This document shows, piece after piece, positions 3,376 through 63,580 of a DNA stretch of 64,000 bases. Source of the stretch: Mytilus edulis. Taxonomy: Eukaryota. Each line of letters opens with the position of its first letter. The stretch's first letter is position 1. The notes beneath the pieces were generated by a model. The model was given only the letters and a program-made list of their open reading frames with translations, had not been told where the DNA came from and ran no database searches. Location of the stretch: the NCBI RefSeq assembly GCF_963676685.1, contig NC_092348.1, positions 17,236,001 through 17,300,000 of the forward strand, given 5' to 3'. A program made the translations under genes and the position numbers.

Positions 3376-3510
3376 AATAGTTATCAAAAGATCCAGGCTG
3401 ATAATTAAATACACCAGACGCGCGTTTCGTCTTCCTTAGACTCATCTGTGACACTTAGATCAAAATAGTAAGAAAGCCAAACAAGTACAAAGTTGAAGAG
3501 CATTGATGAA
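3376..3510 (-). ncRNA. Retrozyme/pLTR fragment with mutated type I hammerhead (3411-3454)
   Basis: Minus strand reads GUGUCA-CAGAUGA-GUC..GAC-GAAA-CGCGCG-UC-UGGUGU. The core CUGAUGA is changed to CAGAUGA. Confidence 0.8.
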
Positions 3511-4029
3511 CAACATTTGATCAAAGAGTAAAAACCAAACTGACGAACGCCACCAATGGGTCTTCATCACAGTGAGGAAAGTTTGCACCCAGAGGCGGAC
3601 GTAGGCTTGCCTCTTAACATAAAAGCTTCATTGAAATATTTAAAACATAATCAAACATGTATTTCCGACAACATTTTGAATTCAAATCAGTCTGTACATG
3701 ATACAGTACATATATAAGAGTTCTCGAGACTAGTTAGCAGCTCTGTCACGTTTATTCTTAACAGTCTATGACAAATGGATTTGAACTTTTTGAAATGGAA
3801 TCAATCATCAAATTATTTGTCGTTAAAATAAATGGCATTCGTTCTAAAATGATTATAAAACAATAGTTGATGCAATGCCTATCCAAATCGATGTAGGTTT
3901 GATATTGTTCATACGTTTATCATTATTATGTTGAACGTTTTTATCCAATTAAACTGACATAATTGATAAATCAGGTACAGATAAGTATCTTTGTATCTCA
4001 ACTTGCAGCTGGAAATTGATTATGAAAAA

Positions 4030-4320
4030 CGGATGAGAACTAATTTTAACGACAAATGAGATGAGTTTTAGCTTTCCAAGTATAAAATTTCAGTTATGGT
4101 ACATCTATATCAAAAATAATCCTCGATTAGGTCATTATCGCATTTTACATTTCTTCGTATATCTGTTTCCACGTCCGGTGTTCCTTGGATCACCCTCTGT
4201 TCGTGTTGCTTACTGCTTAATTTTACAGTGAGTGTTTTGTCAATAGTTTTCCTTTTGTGATATTTTTTCTCTGTTTTTCAACTTGGTGTTTTAAATAAAC
4301 CTTTGTTATATTCTTCCTAT
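4030..4320 (+). mobile_element. Highly degraded Penelope-like element 3' remnant
   Basis: gacaaatgagatgagttttagctttcca is a decayed DKRDDFSFP motif. It is followed by the tail sequence (caccc...gttcgtgttgct) seen after other Penelope-like remnants in this window. Confidence 0.5.
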
Positions 4321-4344
4321 TTTCAACAGTACAAAGTATATCAT

Positions 4345-4523
4345 ACTTAGCTTACCTTAGCTGTATTTCACAAAACTTTGAGAATGTTTGGTACTCAATG
4401 CTCTTTAACTTCGTACTTTTAAATATTTTGGATTCGAGCGTGACTGATGAATCTTTTGTAGACGAAACGCCCGTCTGGTGTAAATATAAAATATTTGATT
4501 CTGGCATCTAGGATGAGTTTATT
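4345..4523 (+). ncRNA. Retrozyme/pLTR fragment with type I hammerhead (4438-4481)
   Basis: GCGUGA-CUGAUGA-AUC-UUUUGUA-GAC-GAAA-CGCCCG-UC-UGGUGU. The core is intact; stems I-III each carry a substitution. Confidence 0.85.
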
Positions 4524-5179
4524 ATCATACAGGAACAGTGATGTTTACCCTGATTTCCAAATGATGTGCCCCACTTTTTCTTAATTTTCAAATTAAAGTA
4601 ATAGTCTTTTCATCGGTAACTGTAAAGCAGAATTTATATTGTGTGTTTTCATTTCTAAACATCATATTGATCTGTTTAAAAGGGAGGGAAGTGTTGTTTA
4701 TTGTGTTTTCTGTTCCAGTCATTGGTATATTTTGAAACGTAACCAACAACTTCAAGTCTAAATGACTTTTCGTGTTGATACAAAACATTAATTTGCCTAA
4801 AATCGTTTTCACAATATATAAACATGTTTGACCTATATACATTCCTACTTGATACATCATACTAGACTTAATGCATCCAATACTGAAGATTTAGCCATAG
4901 TTACGATGGATCATCAGTCACTATAAAGATGAAAAACATATTCAATAATACAAGAACAACACTCATTTGATATCTATATACCGTCTAGTTCATATTCCCT
5001 CACTAAATCAAATCTTTATGATACAGATTTATCACATGGGCACAGTTAATTCATTGAAAGATAAATGATGTTGTTACTATCAATATGGATGTGAAAATTA
5101 TGAGATTTGGAATTGTAGGCTAATGAGTAGCTACTAATTATATTTGGGTTATGTTTTTTTTATTAAACGAACATTTAAG

Positions 5180-8750: not shown

Positions 8751-11700
8751 ATGCCCGCATAGCTTGTTAATAGATATAGGAAGATACGGTATGAGTGCCA
8801 ATGATACAACACACCATCCAAGTCACAATTTATAAAAGTAAACCATTATAGGCCACGGTCCGGTCTTCAACACAGAGGCTAGGCTAAAAAGTTCATTTGA
8901 TAGTTAATCGATGAAAAATAACACAAAGGCGCTTCTGAACCGTATATTGTCCCTAAAGATAACACAAATTCGTAAATGTATGGCTGTTACAAAATCAATC
9001 GTTTCTGTAGCAATTTCGCCCCTTTACATTTGGGACTGGCAGTGCAGATACATCATGCATATGCATATGGGAATATGGGTCACGAACATTGATTGAAACT
9101 TTGTACTCACATTTCTTTTGTGTTTCCTATGCAAAGGGAAGACTATATCTGACGAGTTTGACCAAAACATGACGGTATTTACGCTCCAGATAGCATTTGT
9201 ACTAAAAAAAAACTGTGTTTGCTTTGAACAAACTCTGTCCTGCGCCGAATTTGTTCTTATAAAAAAGGGAAGTGTCTTGTAATGCTAATACGCGTACTGA
9301 ATCCGCATATGATGACTAAGAGATTGATTCATGTCCCTATTTTATAAATACTTGAGCTATTGTGTGTCGCTTTTAAAAGTTATATAAGGATCATGACTGA
9401 ATTTGAATTACAACATTAGAAAATTGGCATTGCATTGTATAATTTTTCATCCTTCCCTTAAAAAATCAATGATTATCCTACTAAAAAAATGTTCATGCAC
9501 CAAACTGACTTTGTTTTACACTCAATTTTTTTTTAAACCTCGCATTCGCCTCGGCTGACTATAGTATATTTTGTGTTATTCCTGCTCTGTCCAGACTTTA
9601 CAAATACACAATATGTATTTATCTATAACTAGATACTAATTTTCACAAAATACACAACCTTTAAGATGCAAAATTAAAAACACTGTTTCAGCGCTTGAAT
9701 TTTGTTTTTTCAAAGATAGAAAAAATATAGAAATAATTTGATAAACTGGTGTTTTATACTTTAGAAAATAATTCTGTGATATACTATAGTGAAATACTAT
9801 ACACAATATGACAGTTTATGGATGTGAAAAGGTCAAGGCAACTTCTTCTTTTGCTATGTCTTAAATGGAAAAAAATCAGAAGGTTCCAAATCAACGCCAT
9901 TTTGTAATGGCAGCTCTTCATATAATTAGTCAAACTTGTCGTTTTAACATCGTTTATAGCATATGCTTATGGTTGAATCGTTTTTGTAGCATTCTATTGA
10001 ATAGATATCAGAATATTTCTCCTTTTTGTTCTTGTGTTTGAAATATTGATATTTTTAGGTCTGACCTTTGACCTCAATTTCACAAAATTGTAACCACTCT
10101 GGATTTTTACGACCCAACTTTTCTTATTGTACACGTTGTCCTCTTTCCATCGATATATAATTTAGGTGTGTGTTCTTCCGGACCATTAAAGTTTTAAAAA
10201 AATGAACTCTGGTTGCAGTACCATAAGTTTTAATCATTGTTTATATGATATCTTATTCATGACAAAAGAATGAAAATGTTTAACATAGCGTAATGAGACA
10301 AATAATATAAAAGACATCGTTATGGCGATACACAGAGTGTTCTTATAGAAAATGTTTACTCGTTTCTGTGTTTATGTTTTGTTGTTTTTCTATAATAAAT
10401 GTTTGATAATAATATAATTTTAAAAAATAGGTTATCTTTTAAAATTAAAAAAAAAAATTTGATTGACGTAAAACAAAACAAGTGTGTTTGTCTAAACGTA
10501 AGAAACTGAAAACGAATTATCGCCTCATACTTTATCGTGATAATTTATATAAAGTCAGTATCAAAAACAAGAGTCCTATATTTTATATTTTCGAAGCTTC
10601 TTAGACAAACGTCAATTGAAATCAGAGATAAAACATGATAAAATTACAAAATTATAATGTTAATAGTTATCAAAGGTACCAGGCTTATAATTATAAAACT
10701 GAATTTCAAAGTTCAATACCACAAAATTAAAATTAATTGTGTAGTTTCGGTTAAGATAACGTTGGATTGAATTGGTGTTATAAATTAATATCCATAGAAT
10801 TTTTGATAATTTGTTAAAATGTAGTTTTCAACATGACTTTCGCAAATATACAATAAAACGTATTAGTCACGGGGCTTTTTCTAAGCTACCAGTTGTGCAA
10901 AACTGTCAGATGTTGTATACATTATTAATGTGAAACATAATGTAATAGAAAGGAAACTAGATTTATAGAATTTCATAAGATTATATAAACTATGCGAAGA
11001 ACACTATTAATAATAGGCTCTCAAAATATAAAGCAAAAATCAGGGTCATTTGGGTTCGGGTTTTTTTTCAAAATATTTTGGTAAAAAAGTTGAGTTAATT
11101 GATTTATCACTCCTTGAATGTCAAAGATGAAAAAGATGAATCAACCACTAAATATTCTGTATTTGTAAAATAAAAAACACAAAATTATTCAGATGAAAAG
11201 GCTTGCAATTAAATGGCATTCTTTTCCCATATGCACTTTCATTTAAGATCTAGACCAATTGTTTTCTGTTATTACAACCAAACCAGATTGTGTAAAACAT
11301 ATAAGCTTCATTGTAACTAGACTTTGTCGGAATAGGTCTTAACGGGATTCTTCATTTTGTCATTGTATTTTATTTATATGTTTTTATTCATCATACTTTT
11401 TTTATTAACACAAGAATCAGCCTAATAGTTGTCATTTAAAGAACATTAATGGGAATAAAATGGCCTAGTTTTATGACACAAACATCATTTTCTCTTTGCA
11501 AGGTTTTGAACATTATTTTTGTCTATGTATTTGTTATAAAACTTTATAAGGATATCTTTGTCATTTGCTTTCATTTAATGATTATTTTATGTTTTATTGC
11601 ATAATCACTGTCGTAATATTGATTGTGGACACCTCCAGTCGTTTTAAAATTTAGTACAAAATAAATAATAATCCTTAAATATGGTAAAATGTAGAGTAAG

Positions 11701-12967: not shown

Positions 12968-14261
12968 TGAACCTTGACCACATAAAATATCTGTTGTCCG
13001 TCAACTTCATTTGTACTTTGTCTGTTAACTTAGCAAATCATTGACTGTATCTTTAAGGTGAGGGAAAGTGTATTATTATGTTGGTATTGCTCCCAGTCCC
13101 TTTTGGTTTTCTGTGGTTCCTTTTTTATCAATGAATTATAATGTGTTAAAGTATTATATATTTAAGCAGTCACACATAACATATAAGACATTTGATGAAA
13201 TTATTAATACCGTAAAATAAATATTCAATATGTTTTTAGCACTAAATGATTTGAATCATATAATAAATATAGGTTAATGAGACGGTGACCACGGTTCTTA
13301 TCGAAAAGGGTCATTAGCTACGAGCAAAGAAAAAAATAGGATATGATTTTGTTTGTTTCAATCATGAATACAAGTGAAATAACGAAATGATAAATAACTT
13401 TCAACATATTTTGTTCAATTTTGTCAAAATAAGCAAAGAAACATAAGTGGAGATTAGTTCACTGGCAAGTGAATGATTCGACCTCATTGAATCCGTATTC
13501 ATATGGCCTTAATTCAAACCATTAGCTAGAGATTGTTTGCGCATGTATAAGTCGTGTTCAACCAATTGTCAACATTTAAAGTGAAACAGAAGTGAACCAT
13601 TTGACTTATTCGATATACAAAAAGTCATTCTTCTACAGGTAAAAAAAACTATTTAAATCATTTTTTAACCTAAAACATGAAATCAAACAGATGTAGAAAA
13701 CTTCAATTGCACGAGATTGCTATTTATTTATATTCATGTTTATGTTTATAGTGGGCTTTGTGACCCATATTTATTTTCGCTTAAACTTTTCGCTTAAACG
13801 ATTCATGACTAGGAGCAGCGGAATACTACTGTAACCAAACGACACCAATAACAAATGAGATTTAATAAACTTACATCAAACAGGTGTCTACAAAATAGGG
13901 CAAGCTCTAAAAGTCTCAAAATAATTAAAACCGAAACGTTAATAATATCAAATTCAATAGGTGACAAAAATATAGAATAGAACAAATACACATTTCTGAC
14001 GAGATTTCTGACTTGGAGTTGGACAAATCTGTATTGACTGGATAATCATTGGTCTGTTCTGTGTTCCTTTTAAATTTCAACCAAAAATGATTAACTGGAT
14101 CATCCATTACTGTATTGGATACCTAAACTACATAACTATCCTTACAGACAACGGTATATTAAAGTTTGGGTCTTCCAAGAGCTCTTCGTGACATCTTTCT
14201 AAATTATTAACACCATTATCAGCAATCAAAGCTGTGCTTTAAAGTTATTGTGCAACTGCCA

Positions 14262-15230
14262 ATTCTAGAGGTGGCGTAAATCAGATGAAGATATTAAAAA
14301 TACCAAAAAAAATTTTAAGTACATACAATTCAAACAACTTTTATATTTAAATAGCATTAAAACCTTTGACTTTTCTACACTTTACACGAGTATTTCCGCA
14401 TTCCAAACTAAAAGACAAATTGAAAGATTTGGTAATGCTTTGTTTCATAAAAAATAATTTCCATATTAGCAACAAGTACCTTTTCTAAATGAGGGTTACA
14501 TTCTACTATGTAAAACAATCACTCGGATTCAAACAAAAATTTATCTGAAACTCACATTAGCAAGCTGCTTGATTTCTTGATCGACAACATATTTGTTATG
14601 TTTCGAGGACGTGGCTTGCAACAAACTATCTGCACTCCCATTTGAACAAACTGTGAACCTCTTCCTGCCGACTTGTTCCTTAATTCTTATGAGGCTTACT
14701 TCAAACGAGACTTCTTAGGAAGAAATATCCTTTAACTTAACTTTCCGCTATATAGATGATGTTCTCTCACTAATTAATTCAAAACTTTGGTGACTATGTT
14801 GAACGCATGTACCCAATCAAATTTGAGATAAAAGATACTTCAGATACAGTTAAGTCTGCATCATATCTTGACTAACATCTAGAATTTGACAATGAGGGTC
14901 GATTGAATTCAAAATTTTACGATAAAAAGAAACGATTTCAGCTTTCAATTGGGAACTTTGCATCAGTCTATAGTTTATATATAAAAATCCAGCAGCGCCT
15001 GCTAACGGAGTATATATCCCCCAATATTCCCGGTCTTATAATTTACTATCATGATTTCATTGATAGAGTGTTGCTGCTCACAAGGAAGTTGCTGAGTCTA
15101 TAGTTTTCTATGTTGTGTTTTGTGTACTATTGTTTGCCTATTTTTCATTTGCTTTTTTAGCCATGGTGTTGTCAGGTTATTTTCAATTGAGGAGTTTGAA
15201 TGTCCCTCTAATATCTCTCGCCCCTTTTGA
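14262..15230 (+). pseudogene. Decayed Penelope-like retroelement reverse transcriptase and 3' tail
   Basis: Motifs SRGGVNQM.ILKN, IKTFDFSTLYT, LIDNIFV, TNC.PL..DLFL.SYE, FRYIDDVLSL, EIKDT.D, KFYDK and PAAPANGVYI occur in order, with stops and frameshifts. Confidence 0.9.
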
Positions 15231-19363: not shown

Positions 19364-21024
19364 CTTTTCGTAAAGGAGCATAAGTTGCGAGAAAACAAAA
19401 TAGGATATGATTTTGTTTGTTTCAATCATAAATACAAGTGAAATAATGAAATAACAAATAATGGTACAATTTTGTCAAAATAAGCAAAGATACATCAGTG
19501 GTGATTATTTCATTGTCAAGTGAATAGGTTGGCCTCTATGAAAACTATCAACTGAATTTTATTAAAAATAAAGTTATCTTACTGACAAAGTTGTAAGATG
19601 CAAGATATAAAACCTAATATAAAAGGTCCTTAAAATTACATAAAAGAAAACTTGATTTTAGAGAAACATATTTCTTCAAAATACTTAAATGTGGAAGAAC
19701 ACAACTTGTACTGAAACCCCTGGGCTAAGGTCATTTAAACATGTATGTATATGAGCATTTGAAATTATTTGTATTCTGTTTTACCATACCATATGTATGC
19801 TCATATATTTCTTGCACTATTATTACTATATTTATGAAAATGTTATTACTATACTTAATCCATAGATTTCTAAATGTTAGTTCATAGAATGCTTATTATG
19901 ATTATTTATTATATTTGCTTGTTTATTGTGCCACAAGATAAATATATGTTGATACTTCATGAAGAAAAAAAAAGTTATAAAAAAAACAATAACTCGAACT
20001 CATTGAATCCGTATTCATATTATTTTCAATTTAAACCATTAGCACGAGATTGTGTGCGCATGTATTAGTCGTGTTCAACCAATAGTCAACATTTAAAGTG
20101 AAACAGAAGGGCACCATTTGACTTATTCGATACACAAAAAATCATTCATATACAGGTAAAAGATAATTAACACATGTTTAAACCTATAACATGAAATCAA
20201 ACAGATGTAGGAAAATTCAATTGTACGAGGTTGCTCTCAATGTATTTCCACGTTTATGTTTATAGTGGGCTATGTGACCCATACATGTTTTCGCTTAATC
20301 GATTTATGACTATGAGTAGCGGTATACAACTGTTACCAAACAACACAAATAACAAATGAGATTTAATAAACTTTTTAGTTTTCGAACACAAAACACAGGT
20401 GTTTACACACTGTGGCAAGCACTAGAGTCTTGAAAAGATTTAAACTGAAACGTTATTTATATCAAAATTCAATAGATGCCAAAAAAATAGAATATGACAA
20501 TACACATTTCTGACGAGATTTCTTACTTGGAGATAGACAAATCAGTATTGACTTGATAATCATTGAACTGTTCCAAGTTCCTTTTGAATTTCAACCAAAT
20601 ATGATTAACAGGACCATCATTTACTGTATAGGACACATAAACTACATAAGTGTTTTAACAAACAACGGTTTATTGCTGGGTCTTCCAAGTACTCTACGAA
20701 ATCTCTTTCTAAAGTATTTACATTAATTGTATTAGCAATCAATGCCGGGCTTCAAGTTAATTTCAAACGGCCTATTCTAGAGGTAACGTGAATCAGAGTA
20801 CGTGAATTATAGTACATACAATATACAATCAAAGACTCTTCAATCTTGCAATAGTCTGTAAACATTGTAATTTCTAAACTTTACACACGTATTCCCCATT
20901 CCAAACTAATAGACACATTAAAAGAATTGGTACTGCTGTGTTTCATTAAAAATAATGGTCAAAGTAGATACAATTATCAGCTGTGGCCCCTCTTATTGTA
21001 GACTTGTTTCTTTTTTCTAATGAG

Positions 21025-25703: not shown

Positions 25704-26728
25704 AAAGAGCATTTCTACATGACCTTATAGATACTATTTTATTAGCAAATGAGGTGCTTGTAAAAAGTAACAATTTCATTTCAATAACATACTAAGCGAC
25801 ATTCAGTTAAATTGCATGTTGGCATTTTTCCAAGCAGAATTGGTTAGTGGTCAAGGTAAGACATAAAGGTCAAGCTTGTGGTTGGTTTACAAAGGATATC
25901 ACAAATAATCCGGTATACAATAAGTAACACAGTTACAATAACATGGCTGTATTCGAGTTCATTAAATTGCAATGTAATAAAATATTGTGTTGTAATGAAA
26001 CTGCTTTTAATAATGGTATTTATTTCTCAGACCCTAAAAGAAATAGTAATTGCTTTATTATAAGCAAACACCTTTCACTGCCAATTAATATTAAATTTTA
26101 CTTTTTGGAGGGAAGCGCTATTTTGAAGTTTTATCTTCTCAATAACATACCATGACATGTAAAACGCCTTAAAGGCAGTACATTTGCAATATTCACAGTA
26201 GTACATGTCTGATGGCAATATAAACATCTCCTATTTTATATTTAAAGTTACGATCAAATAAACTTCTTTTGCGATCAAGTCTGTTTGTAAATAATTATAT
26301 TGGATCAACTTTCAATTGTCTGATTCTCTCGTTATAATACTTTGTGGAAAAGCCTTTTTTTCAAAATAGATAATATTCTATAAGAAGTTACGGTACTCAA
26401 TATTTTCAAATACAATATTGGTTTTGTGTATACACTGAATATTTGACGATTATTATAGTCTCCAAAAGTCTGGTCGTGGAATCACAATCCGGAATCCATT
26501 ATCGCAAAATGCTACTTATCACATACTTTTACCTGATAGGAGTAAAACAATAAACTGTGCAATGGCATGTATAGGAGCATATTTTTTTTAACTGTTTTCT
26601 TTTCCAGATCATCGATACCCATCCCCAGTGTTTGGTAGGGTTCGTGTTGGTCATTATCATGCATATCTTTGTATAGTGCTTCAAACTTCGCGCGTTTAAC
26701 ATGATATTTATATCAATATGATATGTAA

Positions 26729-26968
26729 ATAAACTCATCATAGATACCAGGACTTAATTGTATATATACGCCAGACGCGCGTTTTGTCTACAAAAGACTC
26801 ATCAGTGACGCTCGAATCCAAAAAGTTATTAAAAAAAAGCCGCATAAAGTACGAAGTTGAAGAGCATTGAGATCTTAAAAATTCCTAAAAGTGTTGCCAA
26901 ATACAGCTAAGGTAATCTATGCCTGAGGTAGAAAAGCCTTAGTATTTCAAAAAATTCAAAATTTTATA
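26729..26968 (-). ncRNA. Retrozyme/pLTR fragment with mutated hammerhead (26768-26811)
   Basis: GCGUCA-CUGAUGA-GUC..GAC-AAAA-CGCGCG-UC-UGGCGU. GAAA is changed to AAAA. Confidence 0.85.
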
Positions 26969-26991
26969 ACTACTAGGCTTGTGATGTACTT

Positions 26992-28114: not shown

Positions 28115-28328
28115 TCAACCCCTTTTATTGTCAATCCTGGGCAAAGCTCTGATTTCTTGCCCGGCTTTGTCTATACCTTTTTTGTCCTTTTTGGTTTATA
28201 GCTCGTAATGAAATCCTTTTAAGAAGCTTTGGATCTTCAAATGTTTTAGCCTCGAGTATCACTGAACGAACATTGATTGTCGAAATGCGCATCTTGTGCA
28301 GAAAAATTGGTACCGTTTATGTTATTAA
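28115..28328 (+). ncRNA. Family-2 retrozyme fragment with degenerate hammerhead (28256-28299)
   Basis: GUAUCA-CUGAACGA-ACA..UGUC-GAAA-UGCGCA-UC-UUGUGC. It is homologous to the 63270-63400 copy, and its core is altered. Confidence 0.75.
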
Positions 28329-41460: not shown

Positions 41461-42004
41461 ATATATTTGTAACATAATAGTACGTTACTATGAGCGGACG
41501 TTTATGTCAAAATAACTGGTTTCATCTAAAAAAAAATCATCCAGATACTTATGCGAAGCATCTAGATAGTTATGCGAAGAATTTAGATTAAAATGCATCT
41601 AGTTTGAACCATCGCTATTTTGACATGAAAGGCTACTCATTCGTTACACCATGTAAGCTGCAGAAGAACAACGGACCTCCCCTATTAACGATAGAACAGG
41701 GCACAACAAACTCTGCGTCACCTGAATGAATCAACGCCACATATAGGGACGTGTTTCTAATCTTGATATTGATACAATTATTTGGAACGAGATCTAAAAT
41801 TACAATCATTCTCCCAATTTGTAAAAGTTCTTGAAAGGTTATTTTAAATCAATGATGTGACTATACTGACAAATAAGACATATGTGAAAATTTACCAAAA
41901 AAAATAAAAAAATAAACGGTAAGACATAACACAATGTCAAACCGTATTCAGAAAAGAAACATAATGCATGCATGTTGAATATATGAATACCGCGACAAGT
42001 CGTA

Positions 42005-42603
42005 TAGTTATCAAAAGTACCCGGATTATAATTTAGTACGCCAGACGTGCGTTTCGTCTACATAAGACTCATCAGTGACGCTCATATCAAAATAGTTATA
42101 AAGCCAAACAAGTACAAAGTTGAAGAGCATTGAGAATCAATGCAAAATTCCAAAATGTTGTGCCAAATACGGCTAATGTAATCTATTGCTGGGACAAGAA
42201 CTTCCTCAGTTTTTCGAAAATTTAAAGTTTTGTAAACAGGAAATTTATAAAAATGACCACATAATTGATATTTATGTCAAAACCGAAGTGCTGACTACTG
42301 GGCTGGTGATATCCTCGGGGACGAAACGTCCACCAGCAGTGGCATCGACCCAGTGGTGTAAATAGTTATCAAAAGTACCAGGATTATAATTTAGTACGTT
42401 TCGTCTACATAAGACTCATCAGTGACGCTCATATCAAAATAGCTATAAAGCCAAACAAGTACAAAGTTGAAGAGCATGGAGGACCCAAAATTCCAAAAAG
42501 TTATGCCAATTACGGCTTAGGTAATCTATTCCTGGGAGAAGAAAATCCTCAGTTTTTCGAAAATTTAAAGTAAACAGGAAATTTATAACAAATGACCACA
42601 TAA
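42005..42603 (-). ncRNA. Tandem retrozyme/pLTR repeat (period 358 bp, ~1.7 units) with type I hammerheads
   Basis: Units start at 42005 and 42363. The HHR at 42038-42081 reads GCGUCA-CUGAUGA-GUC-UUAUGUA-GAC-GAAA-CGCACG-UC-UGGCGU. The second HHR lacks 11 nt spanning the cleavage site. Confidence 0.92.
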
Positions 42604-42649
42604 TGTGCAATGCAATTTCACATGACACAAAACCTTTATATTCGGGAAT

Positions 42650-43330
42650 CGGTCACGCTCGCAACTTGTTGATTGTAAACCACGACCTTAAAAGTAGTTT
42701 AGACACAGATACATCGTATAGATTCGTGATGGGGTCAATCTTAACTTTCCTCCTCATATCTCTGTAGAAGTAAATTCTGTGTTGGAAGCACGCTCACATA
42801 AGTGTTAACATGCACGAGCGTAACGTATCAAATGATATATATTTAAACACCATTCGACGGAGCAAAGGATAATGTTACTGGTGAAAATAAGAAATCGGTA
42901 ACTTGGAAGTTTAAATCATCCCGTTTGTCATTGATTTTATGTAAAGTCACCCATCTGTGTGAATATTGAGGAAAATATCAAGGTAGGTAGCAGTCCTTCT
43001 TATATCAAAAGTATCCTTCATTTCAAGCTAACTGTGATATATAAAATGCAAGAACTGACTGAAATGAAAAAACTCACTAAAATACTGCACTCCACGAAAA
43101 ATTCAAAAAGGAAGAACCCTATTCAAATAGCAAATTAAAAAAACAAACGAGTTATTCAGTGATACATCATCACCAATATATCTGAAAAAAATTAAATGAT
43201 TTCGCAAGATGCTTTTTATTTTAACAAATCAACCAGAATGGGTGCACAATTAGTACTCATTGGAATATCGACTGTCTGTTGAAATATTAATCCTGCAACC
43301 TCAACAAAAATATTGTCGATTTAAGGTAAA
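42650..43330 (-). pseudogene. Decayed Penelope-like reverse transcriptase
   Basis: Minus-strand motifs occur in order: IDNIFVEVAGLIFQQTVDIPMSTNCAP, FFRYIGDDVSLNN, KINDKRDDLNFQVTDF, LIRYARAC. Confidence 0.88.
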
Positions 43331-45785: not shown

Positions 45786-47559
45786 ATAAGTTTGCGTTTA
45801 TGTTTTATTCCATTTTAATTCGGTTACGCAGCACCAGTATATTATTTTTTTTTCGAAAAGACGTAAAATTCGATGTGAGGTAATTGTTCTGCTATTATGT
45901 AAGGACTATCTGAGTTATTTTGTTTTTTACCGAAGCAATAGATATGATAGGCGTATCTTCAAATATTTAAAGTGCATTTGATTTGTTGATGTTCAACTTG
46001 ATTAAAAAAGATAACAATACTTTATCAACTATAATCAAAACATAAATATGTTAATTCAATCAAAGACCTGTTTTCTCAATACATATTTATATAATATTTA
46101 TCTAAATGCGACATTTATAGGCCAGTATCTTTCTTAAAAAATCGATGATTCAATGTACACCAAGTGCATCCTAAACACTATCTGAAATCAAATTCAAATT
46201 AGAATAAAAGATTATCAATCTTATCAAAATCTTGGAACTAAAGCCAGAAATTGTCCATATATTTAGTGCTATCATAAAGATACAAGGTAAATATCTCACT
46301 CGGAGATATACATGAAAGCCGCCATTGTTGATAAGGGGAGATAACTATCTCCATTGCGCCTCTTCCCCGCTGTCTTCCGTGATTTGTCTTATCGGTAGTT
46401 TCGGTTTTAAAATGTTGAAATTTTTGATACATTTTACATCATCTTTACAAATCAGGCGTGTATGATTTCGATAAGAACATCGTATATATTTGATGTAATC
46501 AGCTGGTTCCAGATCAGATAAATAACAAGGAATTCGTTTTTTGCACATGTTCAAACAAGAAATATCTTATGATGAACGTCTAAATTATATCTTGGAATAC
46601 TTGCAAACTCAGGTGATTCTTATTGTAGTTATTAAAAAGATATCAATTTCAATGAAAATGAACTGGAACTTTTCGAAATGTGTGTTCCTTTTTCTGATTT
46701 AACAAAATAGCGTTTCACTTTGATTTCTAAATTCTAAAAAAAATATGTCAGTGTATGCCTAGTTTATTTACATTAAGTGTTCTTGCGTGTGTAGGAACAA
46801 TTTTGATATTTGAAGATCTTATTTTCTCAATGTTTCATAAAAATCTGTTATAATTTATAATTCGTCATCCAAATGCGTTTTCCTAATGTCTATAAACGCA
46901 GAATAACGCAGACATGACACAGGCGAATAAAAGAAATCATGTTTTTAATGTTAAATTATGACGTCAAATGATTGCACTCGATCATATCTGCCTAATTATT
47001 CGTCATTCGCTGACTATCATATGCTTCAGTATCTTAATTATCAAATTCGTCCTTTCAAAAATATTGTATATATATGATCAATGCTATGAAAAATGGTTAT
47101 CTGTAACATAGGATAACATGCAAAACAGCTTGGAAACTTGTGTCCCGCCTATAATGGATTATAAGACGTGAAAGTACTTCTAATACATAAGAAGGGGTCG
47201 GAGAAGTCGTTCCAAATCATAATGTTCTATTTTCCATATTGCCTTGTAGAATGTTAAATAATACTTTGCTTTTAATGTTAAATAGAAACAGGTTAACAGA
47301 TCCCCAGATTTTTCTTTGCTTTTGTACAAAAATGCAACAACTTTTGCAGACTAGTTAATCCTATTTCAAGATCGCGATGGAATTTTCGTAGTTCTCCTTG
47401 GTATATGGTTAAACTGTTATCGTTCCCTGTAGACGTTTCGTGTCGTATTGAAGTGCCGAATTAAAAACAAAAATAGTGAAAACGTGAAAACGAAGAAAGA
47501 AACCTTTAGTATAATATAAAAATTAAATTCTGGTAAATATGATTTAATAATGATATGAG

Positions 47560-47925
47560 TTTGTTTACGACCACTGGGTCGATGCCACAGCTGGTGGAGT
47601 TTTAGTTCCCCAAGGGTAACACCAGCCAAGAAGTCAGCACTACTGTGTTGAAATGAATTATCATTGATATTGAGTGTCGTAATTATAAATTAACTGTTTA
47701 CAAAACTTAGAAATTTTGAAAAGATAAGGCTGTTCTACCTCAGGAATAGATTATTATTTAAGTTTTAGGACTTTTTGGTCCTCAATGCTCTTCAACTTCG
47801 AACTTTATTTCGCCTTTTTAACATTTTTTTTATACGAGCGTCACTGACGAGTCTTTTGAAGACAAAATGCATGTCTGGCACAAATATAGAATTTCAATCC
47901 TGGTATCTATGATGAGTTTATTATT
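47560..47925 (+). ncRNA. Near full-length retrozyme monomer with mutated hammerhead (47838-47881)
   Basis: It is homologous to the reverse complement of the 42005 unit. It reads CUGACGA-GUC..GAC-AAAA, so GAAA is lost. Confidence 0.85.
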
Positions 47926-48920
47926 AGTAAGTATAATTCAAACTTGTTTCTTTTCAATCTAGCTTTTCGCCAGAGTTTGATATAAAAAAAATCGTGACTT
48001 TTGTTTCTACAATTTTACATGAAATGTAAATGTCAAAGAAACTCACAAATTACCTTGAAAATCTGCAACGACCGTTTTGATAACACAATGCTAACACTGA
48101 TGTTTCTATGTTTACTTGTCTTTTTTTCTATGAGAAGCTTCGGCCTAAACAGTATTGTGTGTGTAATCAAAGTTTGAGACATTTTAATATCCAAGAGATT
48201 AATCATGTGCACATACACAATTCTTAAAAAAACATCGCAAGATTTCAAGCAATACTAAACAAACCATTGGTAAAACGGTTGTTGATTGGTGGGAAATATT
48301 TTAATAAATGCATTTTTAGCGTGGTTTAGAGCCAATGATGAGTGTAGGGTAGACACACCTAGAGAACAAAATGATAATCCAGTATCTTTGATGATTTTTG
48401 TAAGATTTTTTAACCTCTTTAAAATAAAAAAATCGATTCGAAGTTTTTTAATACAATTAAATTTATTTTTACCTAAAATATTTGAAATTTTAAGAAAACT
48501 AATCAGTAAGCGTTAGAAAATTGTACAATTTGTTTGTCCCCAAGATTACTTGTTTCTGCTGTAAATAAATGCAACAGTAGTATATCCTGTTCGAAATTCC
48601 TGAATCGATTGAGAAAAAAACAAATCCGGGCCACAAACTTAAAACTGAGGGAAACCAACAAACATAAGAGGAGAACTACGGCACAACAGAAACACAACAC
48701 TAAAAAGTAACACACTCATAAACCAACTATAATATAACAATGGCAATTTTCCTGACTTGGTACAGTACATTTTAAGACAAAATGTGGGTCGAACCTGGTT
48801 TTGTGGCTAGCCAACCTCCAGCTTTTATGACAATGTTAAATATAATTTAAATGACAACATAACATGACAGGACAACAAAACAAATAAATGGGAGACGTAT
48901 AGGACAGAGAAACACACAAA

Positions 48921-49220
48921 TAATAGCTATCAAAAGGTACCAGGTTTATAATTCAATACGCCAGACGTGCGTGTCGTCTAAAAAAGACTAATCAGTGACT
49001 GACGCTAATATGAAAAAAATTCGAAAGCCAAAACAAGTACAAAGTTGAAGAGCATTGATAATCAAAAGTTCCAAAAAGTTGAGCCTAATATGGCTAAGGT
49101 TATCTGCCTTGAATAAGTATATCCTTAGTATTTTGAATAATTCATACTTTTGCAAACAGTAAATTTATAAAAATGACTATATAATAGATGTACATGATAA
49201 CACCGAAGGGGTGACTAACT
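48921..49220 (-). ncRNA. Retrozyme/pLTR fragment with degenerate hammerhead (48958-49005), contiguous with a family C repeat
   Basis: The sequence acgccagacgtgcgtgtcgtctaaaaaagactaatcagtgac has both core boxes mutated. Confidence 0.8.
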
Positions 49221-52040
49221 ACGGAATAAAAACGTATACATAAAACAATCTAAACCAGCACATAAAAAATCACAGCCGAGTTAGCCGAAGAGACCAATGC
49301 ACAAAGTGACGTCACATTTGAATTCCTAAACATTTCTAAAAATAGGATAGATTTAGGATAGAATTCAAGACTAGGTTTGTAATACTGATATAACATTTAT
49401 TAATAACAATGAAAATTACAATACTTATTTTTATAAAATTGTGGTAGTAATTAGATAATTAATTCTTTTATCTAGCTATTTCGGTTTTTCTTCTAAATCA
49501 AACTGTAAACTAAAAAGAAAAAATAAACCAACTGTCGACCATAAGACATTGAGCTGAAATATGAGATTAATAAACTGATGATAATCCAAACGTTTTTGCA
49601 AATGATAATTTATGTGTAAGATTTAACAATACCAAAACATATCTGTGCAAAATGAGGTCTAAAGCATGCGAGTGCAAACAACCTAATATCTTATCAAAAT
49701 GAGTTATGGAAGTAAATTGTTTACTGCAGTAGTGCAATATGTCATTGAATAAGAAAATAAAGAGTTATGGGATAAATGAGACAGCAACAAAACGTGTCAA
49801 AAACAAAAATTCCTAAACTACTGATTTTGATATCAGTAAATTACGAAACTAAATGGGTTTTTTTCAAATATATAATGTTGATTAAGGAAAAATTACATGT
49901 TCGTTGATATTGAATTTCGTGGTTTTTGCTAAATGCTGCATACAAGCCTAGACAATTTGCTATTCGTTGAACATTTAAGATTGTAATTTACCTGTTCCCA
50001 CGAAATTCACGAACATTGATATCCAACGAATAATAATGAATTCACACTATGCATATTCACGGATCAACAATCTGTCGATACCTGTGTCTCGGAATTGCCC
50101 AATGTCATGTTTTCTCTGACTGTTTATGACGTCTTTACACTTAATCTGTTGGATGCTGGATGTGCAATTATTGTATTGGTAATTTAGTCATAGATACATG
50201 TACATGAGTTGTTTTTTTACTTGTTATTAGTATGAACTTGATTTCAGTAATTGCGAATACTCTCAGTACTAAGCGTCGTTTGGTTGTTATGATGTTCTCG
50301 TCCACGTCCACTAAGGATTTTTTGTTAGATGTATTTCTTTATGTATCAATCTGATGAGTTAAGCCTTTTCAACTTATCTTCAAAGTTCGTTCTTATATTG
50401 TACTATTACACCATTTAAATGTTTAACCCTGCAACAAGCCAAGCCTGTAATTCAGTGGTTGTCATTTTTACTGTTACTAGAAATTATTTAGATCCAAGTA
50501 AGGTGTGTTCATTATCATCTCTTGTTCTTTATCATAACAGGACTGGGTTGCAAAAACGTCTATTAACTTAATAGACGTGTGTGCAACCGTGTCCAGGAAA
50601 CTTATCATTGTCTTTTCCATAAACTTTGTGATGTTCTACTAATATTAAAAACTACATCTTGTGACTTTCGAATCAACGACTGTTCAAATAAAATAAATGT
50701 CAATCATGCAATTGCAACTACTTTTTTCATGCAGACTAATTTATTTCTTACTTTTCTCCCTGTATTGTCTTTCTTCTTTATTATTATTATGTTCTTATTA
50801 GATTATGGGGTATGATTGCTATTGAGACAACTAAAAACTAAAGGTGTTAGCAATTACAGGTCGTCGAACTGCCTTCAATTATTAATGAGCAAAACGCATA
50901 CAAAAAGTAATATATATAAAAGTCTCCAAAACGAGAAAGTGTGAACCATTCAAAAACGATAAAAGCAATGGTCAGTAGTATTTTTGAAAAACAAACATGA
51001 CAGACAGCAACCACGAACAACCACCTGATTACGGGTTCTTTACTTGGGACATCCACTTAAGGTATTAGCGGGGGTTAAACATGATTTTGAGCACTAAACT
51101 CTCGCCCTTCATATCTAATTATTCATATGTAGAATTTTCTAACTATAATTTTGAAGTAATGCAAATCTACCCGAATATCGTTATAATTTTTAAGTACTTG
51201 GAAATGATTGGACGCATGTAATTTATAACGTGTGGTTTTAAAATTTTCTACAGATGTATTAAAATGGCAAAAGAAAAGCAAAGATACATACGCATATACA
51301 TTGTAAAGGTTTGCTTTGTATTATAGGAATTGCAATATTGTAGACCGTCATAAGTTGTTCAGTAATATTCAAATAAAGGCAACAGTAGTATACCGCTGTT
51401 CAATAGTCATAAATCGATTAAGCAAAAAATTAAGTCCGGGTAACAAACTAAACCGAGGAAACACACCAACCATGAAAAGAAAACAACGGAACACCAGAAC
51501 CCTCACTACAACAAAAGCAAACGCCAACATACATCAAAACGGACTGCAGATAACAACTGCCATATTCCTGACTTTGTACAGGACTTTTTTTTAGTACAAT
51601 TGTGAGGCCCAGCTGGTTTTATGGCTCTCCAAACCTCCTGCTTATATGGCAATGTTAAGACAACCTCTTAAATGCAGGACAACAATACGTGACAGAAATA
51701 CAGTACAAACTGACGCAAAAACACTCGACACAGAGACGCATAAAGTACAACATGTAAACCGTAGACGGACAACTCTCATTAATTTACGACAGCACACAAG
51801 AACACCACAAACGAAATAAAATCTGCTCGTCACATGAAAGAATAACCGTCACAAAAATGTTTGTACTTTTTGTGAAGTTTATAATATTACAGAAAAATTG
51901 ATTATGACAAAATAGATGTGATTTCTTTATAGATATTACAACTCCGTCTGGTAATCGTAGTGAGACGTAATCATTGTTGTTAACGTTGTTGTATTCAAGA
52001 AATAAAACTTAATACATTTTAAAAAGAAACGGTAGCTTTG

Positions 52041-52180: not shown

Positions 52181-52577
52181 TCTTAAGTTATTAACTACTA
52201 CAGCAACATGTGTTTATCGCTATCGATTAACATAGTTTTGCCAGAACAATTTAACAGACTAGTTTAGATAATTATTAAAGCGATATTTCAAAGGATTCAA
52301 ATAAACTTTTATTTGGAGTGATAAATGATAAATATTTGTATTTGATAAATACTATCTATTCAAACAATATCATCAAATAAGTACTTAGGTCTCTCGATCT
52401 ATAAGAGAATATCAATATACGATGGCGAGTTGCAGCAGGAAATGCAAAAACACGATTTGTGCTTTCATGGTTGTGAGACACTCCCGGAAAATTCTTTAGT
52501 AATTGCAGTAAAATTGTTTTCCTCGGTTTTATTCCAACAGATATATTTTTTGCGTGACTAGTGATGCATGCATAGTA

Positions 52578-52692
52578 AATAAGCTCATCATAGATACAAG
52601 TATTGAAATTTTATATTTGCGCCAGACTCGCGTTTCGTCTACAAAAGACTCATCAGTTGCGCTCGAATAAAATAATGTTAAAAAGGCCAAAA
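52578..52692 (-). ncRNA. Retrozyme fragment with hammerhead (52619-52662)
   Basis: GCGCAA-CUGAUGA-GUC-UUUUGUA-GAC-GAAA-CGCGAG-UC-UGGCGC. The core is intact, with one mismatch each in stems I and III. Confidence 0.85.
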
Positions 52693-55600: not shown

Positions 55601-57087
55601 GCCAAGAAGTGATCGCAGAAATCAATTTAAAAAAATCTCAGTTTGCCAAATAGCTTCCATTTGGAATACATCTGACATACAACTGATGAGTTTATAAATC
55701 TTTTGGATCTTCGCTAGAAAAAACGTGTTCGGAAATTAACAAAAAAGTTTCTTGCACATAAGAATAGTATTCAAATCATATCAGTTATAGTTTGACGCAA
55801 TTGGATTGCCTTGGTGGTTTCAATCTAATTAGTCCTTCCATGTTAAACTGGAACGTAAGATGTCTGTAAATATCCCATATATATACGCTTAATTATGATT
55901 TACTTCATTTAAAAATTGATATTGTTGGGGTTTTTTTTATAAATGCTACATTCGTCCGATTTTGTATCTGAAAAAATATATGCTTCAATCCAAACTTCTT
56001 TCTTAAGATACGTGCATTAATCTTATTATATTTGAATTACCTCCCTTGTGCCAAATTTATTTCGGTCCCAAATTAGATCGTCATAATAAAATAGCAATTT
56101 TGTTAAGAAGATGTGATTTTATCAACTTTTATAATACCAGTGATGTATATATACAAAGAAATCAATACATCAGAAGATGCATTGCCTTTCCAATCATACA
56201 TGTTTGTTAGTTACCGATAAGATATATATTTTGATAAGAAGATTTTTAATATTTGCCAACATGATAAAGTGTCTGTGTTGCTACAACGCAATTTTCGATG
56301 ACTTATCTGAAATGTCAATTTGTAGTATTTCATTTCATAGCGTTCGATTTGTATTTCTTGAATCTAATTTTCAACAGGATTTGGTGTCCTGTTTTTAACA
56401 CATATCAAATTTAGAATGTAAAAGATATGTCTTAAAAGAGAAAATAAGAAGAGGTAAAAAAAACTTATATAATCTATTGTTATTCGTTTTGTTGGAAAAC
56501 AACTTTTGAAATTTTTCCCTTGATTTTAAAAATTGAAAAACTTGAATTCCATTCTGACGAGAAACAGAATGCCTTTTAGATCTTTGAGTGCAGGGTTTGT
56601 TTTCAATGACAAAGTTTTTTTTTAAAATGCTGGTACATTTTAGTTCTGGTCCTTTAACTGACATCTTGCTACAATATGTTAAAAGTCCATTGTGTACACG
56701 TAATACAAATAACAAATAAAAGATAGACGATAAGATACAAGGTAATTCCGCTACATTATATAACGATTATACACGTTTTATTCCCCTTTTAATTTTATTA
56801 GAAGCGACTTTTAGTCGTTTTGGTGTTATTAGTACATTTCTTATCGTTTCGATGTTATTGGAATCGACTTTTAGTCGTTGTTATATCATACACTTAGCAT
56901 TCTCACATTTTCACAAGGAGAGTTGCATGATATGTTTGAAACGTGTCGACAGAAATGCAAGTACTATAGGTCATTAATTTCAATTTGTGTGTTCCCAAAA
57001 CTGATGATACATCTTTTGTTCCCTTTATATAATTACCTACTTATTTAGAAATATGTTATTTTCAAACGAACTCCACTATCAATTTCT

Positions 57088-57400
57088 ATAAACTCATCAT
57101 AGATACCAGGATTGAAATTTTGTATTTGCGACCGACGCGCGTTTCGTCTACATAAGACTCTTCAGTGACGCTCGAATCCAAATAAGTTAAAAATGCCAAA
57201 ATAAAGTACGAAGTGGAAGAGCATAGAAGACCAACAATTCCTAAAAGTGTTTCCAAATACTGCCAAGGTAATCTATTTCTGAGGTAGAAAAGCTTTAGTT
57301 TCAAAACTTCAAAGTTTTGTTAACAGTTTGTTTATAATAACAATGCTAATAATTCATGTTCACACAGAATTGCTGAATACTGGGATAGTGATATCCACGT
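57088..57400 (-). ncRNA. Retrozyme fragment with hammerhead (57128-57171)
   Basis: GCGUCA-CUGAAGA-GUC-UUAUGUA-GAC-GAAA-CGCGCG-UC-GGUCGC. The core and stem III palindrome are intact; stem I is weakened. Confidence 0.87.
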
Positions 57401-58989: not shown

Positions 58990-61900
58990 AGTTCTTATTT
59001 TTGTCCTAGTGGTAACAGCTTATACTTGTTCATGTATCAATATCCTGGTTCTAACATCTTATTCTTCATGTATCATTCTCCTGGTTCTAACATCTTATTC
59101 TTCATGTATCATTCTCCTGGTTCTAACATCTTATTCTTGTTCAGGTATCATTCTCCTGGTTCTAACATCTTATTCTTGTTCATGTATCATTTTCCTGGTT
59201 CTAACATCTTATTCTTGTTCATGTTTCATTCTCCTGGTTGTAACATCGTATTCTTGTTCATGTATCATTATCCTGGTTCTAACATCGGATTCTTGTTCAT
59301 GTATCATTTTCCTGGTTCTAACATCTTATTCTTGTTCAAGTATCATTCTCCTGGTTCTTACATCTTATTCTTGTTCATGTGTCATTCTCCTGGTTCTAAC
59401 ATCTTATTCTTGTTCGTGTATCATTCTCCTGGTTGTAACATCTTATTTTCTCATGTATCATTCTCCTGGTTCTAACATCTTATTCTTGTTCATGGATCAT
59501 TCTCCTGGTTCTAACAACTTATTCTTGTTGATGTATCCTTCTCCTGGTTCTAACATCTTATTATTGTTCATGTATCATTCTCCTGGTTCTAACATCTTAT
59601 TCTTGTTCATTTATCATTTCCTTACATCTTATTCTTGTTCATGTATCATTCTTCTGGTTCTAACATCTTATTTTTGTTCATATATAATTCTCCTGGTTCT
59701 AACATCTTATTCTTGTTCATGTATTATTATCCTGGTTCTAACATCTTATTCTTGTTCATGTATCATTCTTCTTGTTCTAACATCGTATTCTTGTTCATGT
59801 ATCATTATCCTGGTACTAACGTCTTAATTTTGTTCATGTATCAATCTACTGTTTCTAACATCTTATTCTTGTTCATGTATAATTCTCCTGGTTCTTACTT
59901 CTTATTCTTGTTCATGTATCATTCTCCTGGTTCTAACATCTTATTCTTGTTCGTATATCATTCTCATGATTCTAACATTTATTCTTGTCAATGCGGCATT
60001 ATCCTGGTTTTAACATTGTATTCTTGTTCATGTATCATTCTCCTGGTTCTAACATCTTATTCTTGTTCATGTATCATTCTCCTGGTTGTAACATCTTATT
60101 CTTGTTCATGTATCGTTCTCCTGGTTCTGACATTTATTCTTGTTCAGGTATCAATTTCCTGGTTCTAACATCTTATTCTTGTTCACGTATCATTCTCCTG
60201 GTTCTGACATTTATTATGGTTCATGTATCATTCTCCTGGTTGTAACATCTTATTCTTGTGAATGTATCATTCTCCTGGTTCTAACATCTTATTCTTGTTC
60301 ATGTATCATTCTCCTGGTTCTAACATCTTATTCTTGTTCATGTATCATTATCCTTGTTCTTACATCTTATTCTTGTTCAGGTATCAATCTCCTAGTTCTA
60401 ACATCTTATTCTTCTTCATGTATCATTCTCCTGGTTCTAACATCTTATTCTTGTTCAGGTATCATTCTCCTGGTTCTAACATCTTATTCTTGTTCATGTA
60501 TCATTCTCCTGGTTCTAACATCGTATTCTTGTTCAGGTATCATTCTCCTGGTTCTAACATTGTATTCTTGTTCATGTATCATTCTCCTGGTTCTAACATC
60601 GTATTCTTGTTCATGTATCATTCTCCTGGTTATAACATATTATTCTTGTTCATATATCATTCTCCCGGTTGTAACATCTTATTCTTGTTCATGTATCATT
60701 ATCATGGTTCTAACTTCTGATTTTTGTTCATGTATCATTCTCCTAGTTCTAACATCTTATTCTTGTTCAGGTATCATTATCATGGTTCTAACATCTTATT
60801 CTTGTTCAAGTATCATTCTTCTTGTTCTAACATCTTATTCTTGTTCGTGTATCATTCTCCTGGTTCTAACATCTTATTCTTGTTCATGTATCATTCTCCT
60901 GGTTGTAACATCTTATTCTTGTTCACGTATCATTCTTCTTGTTCTAACATCTTATTCTTGTTCGTGTATCATTCTCCTGGTTTTAACATCTTATTCTTGT
61001 TCATGTATCAACCTCCTGGTTCCAACATCTTATTCTTGTTCATGTATCCTTCTCCTGGTTCCAACATCGTATTCTTGTTCATACATCATTCTTATGATTC
61101 TAACATATTAATACACTTGTTCATGTATCATTCTCCTAGTTCTAACATCTTATTCTTGTTCAAGTATCATTCTCCTGGTTGTAACATCTTATTCTTGTTC
61201 ACGTATCATTCTTCTTGTTCTAACATCTTATTCTTGTTCATGTATCATTCTCCTGGTTTTAACATCTTATTCTTGTTCATGTATCAACCTCTTGGTTCCA
61301 ACATCTTATTCTTGTTCATGTATCCTTCTCCTGGTTCCAACATCGTATTCTTGTTCATACATCATTCTTATGATTCTAACATATTAATACACTTGTTCAT
61401 GTATCATTCTCCTAGTTCTAACATCTTATTCTTGTTCAAGTATCATTCTCCTGGTTGTAACATCTTATTCTTGTTCACGTGTCATTCTTCTTGTTCTAAC
61501 ATCTTATTCTTGTTCATGTATCATTCTCCTGGTTTTAACATCTTATTCTTGTTCATGTATCAACCTCCTGGTTCCAACATCTTATTCTTGTTCATGTATC
61601 CTTCTCCTGGTTCCAACATCGTATTCTTGTTCATACATCATTCTTATGATTCTAACATATTAATACACTTGTTCATGTATCATTCTCCTAGTTCTAAAAT
61701 CTAAATATTGTTCATTCATCTTTCTTCTTGTTTTAACGTCTTATTCTTGTTCATGTATCATTCTCCTGGTTTTAACATCTTATTCTTGTTCATGTATCAA
61801 CCTCCTGGTTCCAACATCTTATTCTTGTTCATGTATCCTTCTCCTGGTTCCAACATCGTATTCTTGTTCATACATCATTCTTATGATTCTAACATATTAA

Positions 61901-63580
61901 TACACTTGTTCATGTATCATTCTCCTAGTTCTAAAATCTAAATATTGTTCATTCATCTTTCTTCTTGTTTTAACGTCTTATTCTTGTTCATGTATCATTC
62001 TCCTGGTTTTAACATCTTATTCTTGTTCATGTATCATTCTCCTGGTTGTAACATCTTATTCTTGTTCATGTATCATTCTCCTGGTTCTAACATCTTATTC
62101 TTGTTCATGCATCATTCTCCTGGTTCTAACATCTTATTCTTGTTCATGTATCAATCTCTTGGTTTTAACATCTTATTCTTGTTAATGTATCATTCTCATG
62201 ATTCTAAAATTTATTCTTGTCAATGCACCATTATCCTGGTTCTAACATTGTATTCTTGTTCATGTATCAATATTCTGATCATAACATCTTATTCTTGTTA
62301 ATGCATCATTCTCCTGGTTCTAACACCGTTTTGTTGTTCATGGGCCATTTTCATAGTTCTAACACCTTATTCTTGTTGATGTATCAACCTCCTGGTTCCA
62401 ACATCTTATTCTTGTTCATGTATCATTCTCCTGGTTCCAACATCGTATTCTTGTTCATACATCATTCTTATGATTCTAACATATTAATACACTTGTTCAT
62501 GTATCATTCTCCTAGTTCTAAAATCTAAATATTGATCATTCATCTTTCTTCTTGTTTTAACGTCTTATTCTTGTTCATGTATCATTCTCCTGGTTCTAAC
62601 ATCTTATTCTTGCTCATGCAGCATTCTCCTGGTTCTAACATCTTATTCTTGTTCATGCATCAATATTCTGATCCTAACATCTTATTCTTGTTAATGCATC
62701 ATTCTCCTGGTAACACCGTTTTGTTGTTCATGGGCCATTTTCATAGTTCTAACACCTTATTCTTGTTGATGAATCTTGGTATGGTTCTGCTGTGTTAATT
62801 TTGTTCATGTATCATTCTTATTGTTCTTGCATATTATTATTCCTGTTCACTCATCTTTCTCGTGGTTCTAGCATATTATTCTTTTTCATGCATTAGTCTC
62901 TTAGTTCTAACATAGTATTCTTGTTCATCAATCATCCTCATGTTTTTAACGTCCAGTTCTTATTCATCCATCATTCTCATGTTTTTGGATGTTTTAATGT
63001 TAAAATTGTAACGTTTTCTTAGCTTTAATGTCTTATTATCGTTTATCAATTGTTCTTCCGGACCTTATGTCTCATAATTGTTAATCCATTGTTCTCCTGA
63101 TTAGGATGTATTATTCTTGATTCTACGTCGTTCCCCTGGTTGTAAGGTCTGGTTCTCGTTCATCCATTGTTCTTTTGACTATAATGCCTTACTTTCGTTA
63201 TCCATCATACTCATGGTAGTTATATGTCTTATTTTTATTAATGTACCATTCTATTGGCTCTAAAGTCCTATCAATAAAATTAACAGTACCAATTTTCTTG
63301 CACCAGATGCGCATTTCGACAATACATATCTCTTCAGTGATGCTCGTGGCCAAAATATTTGAAATCCAAAGCTTATATAAAAGATGAAGAGCTATAATCA
63401 TCCGTTCTCAATGTTGTAATATCTTATTCTAGTTCATCAATCGTTCTTCTGACTCTTATGTATTACTCTAGGACATCCATCGTTTGCCTGTAGTTTTTAT
63501 GTCTTATGCTCGTTCATGCATCTTTCTCGTTGCTCTAATGTCTTATTTTCTTTTTGTTTAAACTGGTCTGGTTCTTGATC
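58990..63580 (+). repeat. 39-bp minisatellite array (>100 units): homogeneous core ~59040-62770 with a degenerate right flank
   Basis: Consensus TCTTATTCTTGTTCATGTATCATTCTCCTGGTTCTAACA. It accounts for all ORF-track entries from 59009 to 62798. Confidence 0.97.
63270..63400 (-). ncRNA. Family-2 retrozyme fragment with intact type I hammerhead (63300-63343)
   Basis: GCAUCA-CUGAAGA-GAUA-UGUAU-UGUC-GAAA-UGCGCA-UC^UGGUGC. All core nucleotides are present, stems I and II pair fully, and stem III is the palindrome AUGCGCAU. Confidence 0.92.

Follow-up and report, generated by a model that had tools for sequence, protein, structure and literature searches.

Published work, in the text available, treats as open the question of which enzyme inserts copies of the circular RNAs of animal retrozymes into the genome and what that enzyme recognises. 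We approached this question from a stretch of 64,000 nucleotides (nt) of the mussel Mytilus edulis (contig NC_092348.1, positions 17,236,001 to 17,300,000; hereafter the window, numbered from its first letter), in which a first-pass annotation had listed eleven hammerhead ribozyme motifs. Retrozyme elements, two ribozyme families and circles are already known from the accessible parts of published mussel work, and the hammerhead copies of the window are themselves ordinary. The fresh point lies outside the hammerhead: an RNA hairpin and an insertion end-point link the retrozymes to Naiads, a group of Penelope-like elements (PLEs). Judging from the sequences compared, retrozymes probably spread by borrowing the Naiad reverse transcriptase (RT) and endonuclease via this shared hairpin.

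Results

Young tandem arrays in this genome consist of a 355-bp unit (F1) or a 350-bp unit (F2), with copies 88–99% identical genome-wide (the best 40 were scored of 4658 first-look candidates for F1 and of 665 for F2). These hammerhead units, inside the 150–450-bp range of metazoan non-LTR retrozymes, bear out the retrozyme reading of the first-pass annotation, and retrozymes have been published for Mytilus (PMC7229834). In the sections available, that paper describes about 5000 type I hammerheads in Mytilus galloprovincialis, on 350–390-bp repeats and in two similar families, which may correspond to F1 and F2; the likeness extends to low-GC tandem repeats, thousands of copies and abundant RNA. 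F1 and F2 are sister subfamilies, 70% identical across the whole unit. Among young copies, 41 of 56 in F1 and 52 of 58 in F2 have an intact hammerhead, and tandem neighbours always belong to one family (29 F1-F1 and 27 F2-F2 pairs, 0 of 56 mixed). A third family, F3, has a 358-bp unit (L057:2569-3128, also L225 and L245), the stem III palindrome AAGCGCUU and a stem II whose base holds an A-A mismatch, and carries the same hairpin.

Retrozyme insertions stop at a fixed U-tract, 2–8 nt ahead of the 58-nt hairpin. By BLAST, 61 of 73 F1 arrays ended at unit positions 60–89 and 32 of 34 F2 arrays at positions 70–79, with 5' ends scattered in both families; this comparison took in 85 sequences, with ends at locus edges dropped and duplicates and Naiad passengers partly included. 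When ends were placed by anchor, they fell 2–8 nt before hairpin element P1 in 35 of 36 cases for F1a, 31 of 31 for F2, 32 of 36 for Naiad-A and 21 of 21 for Naiad-B; further anchors continued into the hairpin (26 F1a, 26 F2, 11 Naiad-A and 6 Naiad-B). Copies met incidentally agreed on this end-point (16/16 F1a, 8/8 F2). All 11 F1b ends stopped within 10 nt of the anchor; they were not placed against P1, as F1b tandem continuation was seen in none of the fetched loci. No target-site duplications above control were found in 55 arrays. The hammerhead cleavage site is unit position 38, and the end-point lies beyond it, so the copied template would span the site and would have to be a circle or an uncut multimer. 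At two loci (L048:1252-1928 and L049:1387-1688) the 3' end of the F2 copy abuts a retrozyme piece in inverted orientation, an arrangement like the inverted structures described for PLE insertions.

The hairpin is bulged, and six of seven copies fold alike (z -2.6 to -3.3). In an alignment of ten chosen rows, 11 of its 23 pairs change on both sides and 95.7% of cells pair; none of 500 shuffles reached 11 pairs, and slid controls gave 1–3. It is also the best-kept region between F1 and F2, at 81% identity against the 70% of the whole unit. No Rfam match to the hairpin was found in the window (E up to 1) or in five loci (E up to 5), and its assignment to a known ribozyme or Rfam family was rejected for want of a match. 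A pseudoknot joining the core to the internal loop on the 3' side was considered and dropped, because other families do not keep its 3' partner.

Naiads entered the analysis through a decayed RT C-terminus at 42747..43320 (minus strand), just upstream of the F1a tandem of the window, which lies in its 3' untranslated region (UTR). It led to a young family, Naiad-A, with an intact 1004-aa open reading frame (ORF) in the order GIY-YIG, CxC, DKA and RT, the layout described for Naiads in the accessible part of PMC8557442, where GIY-YIG is N-terminal, RT is C-terminal and pseudo-long terminal repeats (pLTRs) stand in tandem. Pfam placed GIY-YIG at residues 135–223 (E 1.4e-4) and RVT_1 at 708–853 (E 0.013), both below the curated cut-off. 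The pLTR tandem structure was seen here too, with the end of the upstream pLTR preceding the body. According to the same source, Naiads differ from retrozymes in being autonomous and without canonical hammerheads. What the two share is the hairpin at the 5' start and the insertion end-point.

The hairpin stands directly before the ATG of intact 1004-aa Naiad-A ORFs. It holds this position also in Naiad-B and in L212, both found by protein query, and in a Naiad_Mgal-like family; L212 is close to the published Naiad_Bpla, and L272-L283 are close to Naiad_Mgal. Three hammerhead-less Naiad families of this genome have it at the same end-point, and in tandem Naiad copies the GC-rich stretch right after the Naiad end is the one that follows the retrozyme end. 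Two metagenome records with ORFs of about 1000 aa (L150 and L176) carry it as well. L212 itself, a bivalve-type Naiad, comes from a record whose title names a symbiont bacterium; it is likely host DNA in that assembly. No Naiad relatives were found in viral contigs.

A search for the core 10-mer returned 12 occurrences in the supplement of PMC8557442, one inside an ORF and 11 at the starts of Naiad consensuses. It thus opens 11 of the 54 published consensuses, from oysters, ark shell, mussels, two hemichordate species and toadfish, a count of the exact string only that misses variants and line-broken matches. Some published Naiad hairpins bear an extra stem at the bulge. A string search of the main text of PMC8557442, as far as available, matched neither "hairpin" nor "stem-loop". 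Other hosts combine the hairpin with a different hammerhead variant, which leaves the hairpin as the constant part. A pattern search in metagenomes gave 39 loci, with the hairpin beside hammerhead units or at Naiad starts and no long ORF of another kind starting after it; the 19 bases that the pattern makes invariant by construction were not used as evidence. Eight of the 39 matches were rejected as GC-rich (45–69%) chance hits, of which the model missed seven and scored one at 21 bits. That all Naiads carry the hairpin was likewise rejected, given the exact core at 11 of 54 published starts and a family of selenocysteine type in which it has diverged.

This last family (L216-L225 and L227-L241; window ends at 27455, 31322 and 43480) is young and very abundant, with 44,971 first-look candidates. 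In-frame TGA stands at four positions that are Cys in other Naiads, in all of the 10, 19, 18 and 19 readable copies, counts that include two duplicate loci, and the family is likely a selenoprotein Naiad in mussel. The table in PMC8557442, in the part available, notes selenoproteins for spiders and two clams and not for its Mytilus entries.

Expression was followed at the level of the F1 family, not of the window copies. F1 RNA was abundant in all four runs (6019, 6792, 10188 and 3201 reads of 8.7, 8.3, 7.3 and 12.7 million records), and in the three stranded runs most of it came from the hammerhead-sense strand. Head-to-tail joints numbered 237, 282, 521 and 38 per run. The raw-read mapping covered F1, and F2 RNA was seen only as loose ends. 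Among indexed records, no holder was listed as RNA, and this blank was given no weight. The first-pass annotation had predicted circles of about 350 nt; this agrees with the Mytilus circles reported in the accessible text of PMC7229834, together with self-cleavage of a single-hammerhead mussel construct at about 0.1 per min.

One motif of the window, at 48958-49001 (minus strand), is not a free retrozyme but a core-dead one captured in a Naiad 3' UTR. The 5'-truncated Naiad 3' UTR spans 48563..49430 and the captured F1 fragment 48922-49217, which ends at the usual retrozyme point; the hammerhead has lesions G8>U, common to the lineage, and A14>C. One Naiad lineage of this genome therefore carries a dead retrozyme hammerhead in its 3' UTR. 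The core is damaged in 26 of 27 related older copies, by G8>U in 20 and A6>G in 16, whereas the lesion sets of younger subfamilies are different. A listing of Naiad-A UTR copies showed lesions in every one of them; four free retrozyme copies, one of them intact, were also in that list. It is plausible that the lesions reflect selection against cutting of the Naiad RNA, but the copies share ancestry. A Naiad with a live hammerhead at its 3' end was considered and rejected, as the motif is located some 600 nt within the 3' UTR and is damaged in nearly all of these older copies.

All eleven hammerhead motifs of the window were found at the coordinates and strands first listed, and they exceed chance: a strict type I descriptor gave two matches, against a mean of 0.005 (maximum 1) in 200 first-order Markov controls. 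In a covariance scan, which the first-pass annotation had proposed, five sites matched Rfam hammerhead models, Hammerhead_1 at 42038, 57128, 52619 and 3411 and Hammerhead_3 at 26776, with every score below the gathering threshold. The motifs are mostly decayed, 5'-truncated remnants of 350–355-bp non-LTR retrozymes, each located near the 3' end of a 5'-truncated repeat. The core residues CUGANGA, GAAA and UC had been described as fixed; six of the eleven motifs have core lesions, three combine an intact core with broken stems, and this leaves 42038 and 63300 as the two motifs that are intact throughout.

The F1a partial tandem spans 1.7 units at 42004..42604 (minus strand), with an intact hammerhead at 42038-42081 and an upstream hammerhead at 42396-42428 from which the 3' part of stem III/stem I is deleted. 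Within it lies a Naiad-type hairpin (P1-P2-core-P4) with a U-rich leader (42288..42369, minus strand), which scored 91 bits and is itself one of the ten rows of the model. A near-full F1b unit at 47558..47921 (plus strand) has a decayed hairpin at 47558-47640 (53.7 bits) and a hammerhead at 47838-47881 with lesion G12>A. The other F1b pieces are 3' fragments: 4348..4523 on the plus strand (hammerhead 4438-4481, core intact, first stem II pair broken) and, on the minus strand, 26724..26969 (26768-26811, G12>A), 52575..52691 (52619-52662, core intact, stem I mismatch) and 57086..57399 (57128-57171, core intact, stem I broken). An F1a 3' fragment occupies 3376..3509 on the minus strand (3411-3454, U4>A). 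F2 is represented by 3' fragments at 28141..28327 (plus strand; 28256-28299, G8>C and A9>G) and at 63273..63399 (minus strand), the latter young, 98% identical to young copies and with an intact hammerhead at 63300-63343. An F1 tail-only fragment without hammerhead core (unit positions 49–83) at 10658..10692, minus strand, was absent from the first list. No window locus has two consecutive intact hammerheads, the sole tandem being the one with the deleted upstream copy, so monomer release is not possible from any of them. The units are free of ORFs of 100 aa; a chance frame at 4588 falls outside its unit.

Further truncated Naiad 3' ends without hammerhead lie at 41107 and 51378 (Naiad-A) and at 37257 (Naiad-B). 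Between 11735 and 25000 the window holds several long dispersed direct repeats, 5.9–8.3 kb apart and 85–91% alike, which may stem from an old segmental duplication; decayed Naiad RT occurs there at 14017-14959 and 20552-20977. At 19279 there is a relative of a short GC-rich element with inverted ends, which in L099 (oriented 990-1120) interrupts a Naiad ORF. A 39-bp minisatellite of about 102 copies (59013-62978, 83% matches) produces long spurious plus-strand frames, and a 147-bp tandem repeat family occurs at 30616-31286 and 32105.

Discussion

We propose the following route. Tandem arrays are transcribed on the hammerhead-sense strand, as the family RNA shows, and the hammerhead excises monomers of about 350 nt that are ligated into circles, as published for a mussel copy. 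Naiad protein would then bind the hairpin, nick A/T-rich DNA and begin cDNA synthesis on the U-tract, which precedes the hairpin by a few bases; the RT would read back through the cleavage site and on round the circle until it falls off. Such a course would yield a fixed 3' end, scattered 5' ends and family-pure arrays, the three outcomes observed. The hammerhead makes the circle; the hairpin likely secures its copying. With a signal downstream of the start point, copying would be possible only from a circle or multimer, and full-length Naiads with a pLTR would also need a circular or re-entered template. On a broader view, to which we lean with less assurance, this undescribed conserved hairpin is the RT recruitment and initiation signal of a Naiad subclade of molluscs, hemichordates and a fish, and bivalve retrozymes are minimal circular parasites made of that signal and an exchangeable hammerhead.

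Parts of this scheme have precedents. Non-autonomous RNAs or bulged stem-loops that recruit an RT in cis or trans are familiar from pairs of short and long interspersed nuclear elements and from hepadnaviral epsilon; the retrozyme signal differs from these in lying downstream of the start point. For Poseidon PAc, a PLE of another clade, the accessible text of PMC11167929 shows internal RT initiation in vitro: synthesis begins within the RNA, depends on RNA located 3' of the start, and uses start sites that equal genomic ends, but there the signal lies within the ORF. The mussel study (PMC7229834), in the text available, names PLEs solely as candidate helpers and does not describe the fixed 3' end or the hairpin. 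Li, Clavereau and Pollet (2026; bioRxiv 10.64898/2026.07.22.740005) also regard retrozymes as non-autonomous PLE derivatives; their case, in the portion accessible, rests on co-occurrence and pLTR homology in Xenopus, samples no mollusc, has Naiad only in coral, and leaves the cis signal and initiation site undefined. Our literature search, with subscription journals largely outside its reach, found no published link between retrozymes and Naiads via a shared structure, and just two works named both.

Several observations weigh against the proposed partnership. It is argued from shared sequence, shared structure and a shared end-point, and the hairpin could have been inherited from a Naiad while doing another job. 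The rows showing covariation were hand-chosen and related, with a structure derived from folding those same rows, and the L212 hairpin folds weakly (z -0.7). The top genome matches used to place the ends are biased toward query-like copies. Within this genome the hairpin comparison was confined to retrozymes and Naiads. In the RNA runs, F1 mapping showed read ends not to accumulate at the cleavage site, and the head-to-tail joints, which fit circles and array read-through alike, do not separate the two. Moreover, in the selenocysteine type, the most abundant Naiad examined, the hairpin is diverged and escaped the model. This narrows the likely helpers to one subclade, and the signal is not universal.

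The likeliest of the alternatives, though we hold it unlikely, is this: retrozymes descend from the 5' end of a Naiad and are now copied by another enzyme, such as that of a canonical hammerhead-bearing Penelope, Neptune or Nematis element, or else the hairpin serves transcription, translation or RNA stability. The ATG context after the retrozyme hairpin resembles the Naiad start, as plain descent would have it, and the preprint, in its accessible part, ties Xenopus retrozymes to pLTRs of annotated PLEs. A function in transcription draws on a TATA-like box in conserved context inside the first Naiad codons, about 60 nt after the hairpin (L134:1695-1830, L211, L176 and L157), a possible internal promoter. 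Plain descent leaves unexplained, however, why insertions of retrozymes and Naiads share an offset of 2–8 nt from P1 and why the hairpin is the part best kept between F1 and F2, and against another enzyme stands the lack of any long ORF of another kind after the hairpin in the 39 metagenome loci. A satellite-like nature, with the units spreading as DNA by unequal crossover or DNA rolling circle and RNA a by-product, we regard as extremely improbable. Arrays do reach 5–6 units, and the available part of the same preprint invokes unequal crossover for array growth; but a dispersed set of 5'-truncated copies that share one fixed 3' end and lack target-site duplications matches target-primed reverse transcription rather than DNA recombination.

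In another idea, from the first-pass annotation, selection on the stem III palindromes would confine each family to dimers of its own kind, giving two orthogonal self-cleaving lineages. Its basis, compensatory covariation between two families, is real, but concerns one single family that has split: between real young reference copies, 4 of 12 helix pairs differ on both sides and 1 of 12 on one side, and the family 2 stem II given as GAUA is a minor variant (2 of 58 young copies; GACA/UGUC in 54 of 58). Crude helix sums do favour homodimers (-25.1 and -22.3 kcal/mol) over the heterodimer (-13.8 kcal/mol), a gap of about 9–11, and although it contains CpGs, the palindromic octamer has survived in most young copies (46 of 56 for F1, 57 of 58 for F2). 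Such retention is compatible with some role for dimers; for metazoan type I hammerheads, both a palindromic helix III and folding as dimers have been described (PMC4209133, in the text available). The mixed F1/F2 stem III duplex nevertheless keeps six pairs (-8.9 kcal/mol), the F1 palindrome is the Rfam Hammerhead_1 consensus, and a single compensatory pair alters the palindrome: since any such change in the 2-bp stem III flanks the shared GCGC loop, a new palindrome arises automatically. Tandem neighbours are always of the same family, so dimer partners are set in cis, and the published mussel construct self-cleaves with a single hammerhead. Selection for orthogonality is accordingly doubtful, and we give it little credence.

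For the retrozymes of mussels, then, borrowing of the Naiad machinery through the shared hairpin is the reading we prefer. With a named helper, a 58-nt covarying signal and a start site defined to the base, it is directly testable with the existing in vitro Penelope assay. Within the searchable literature, no earlier cis element defined for Naiads would precede the hairpin, and it might offer a handle on insertion by RT from a circular RNA.

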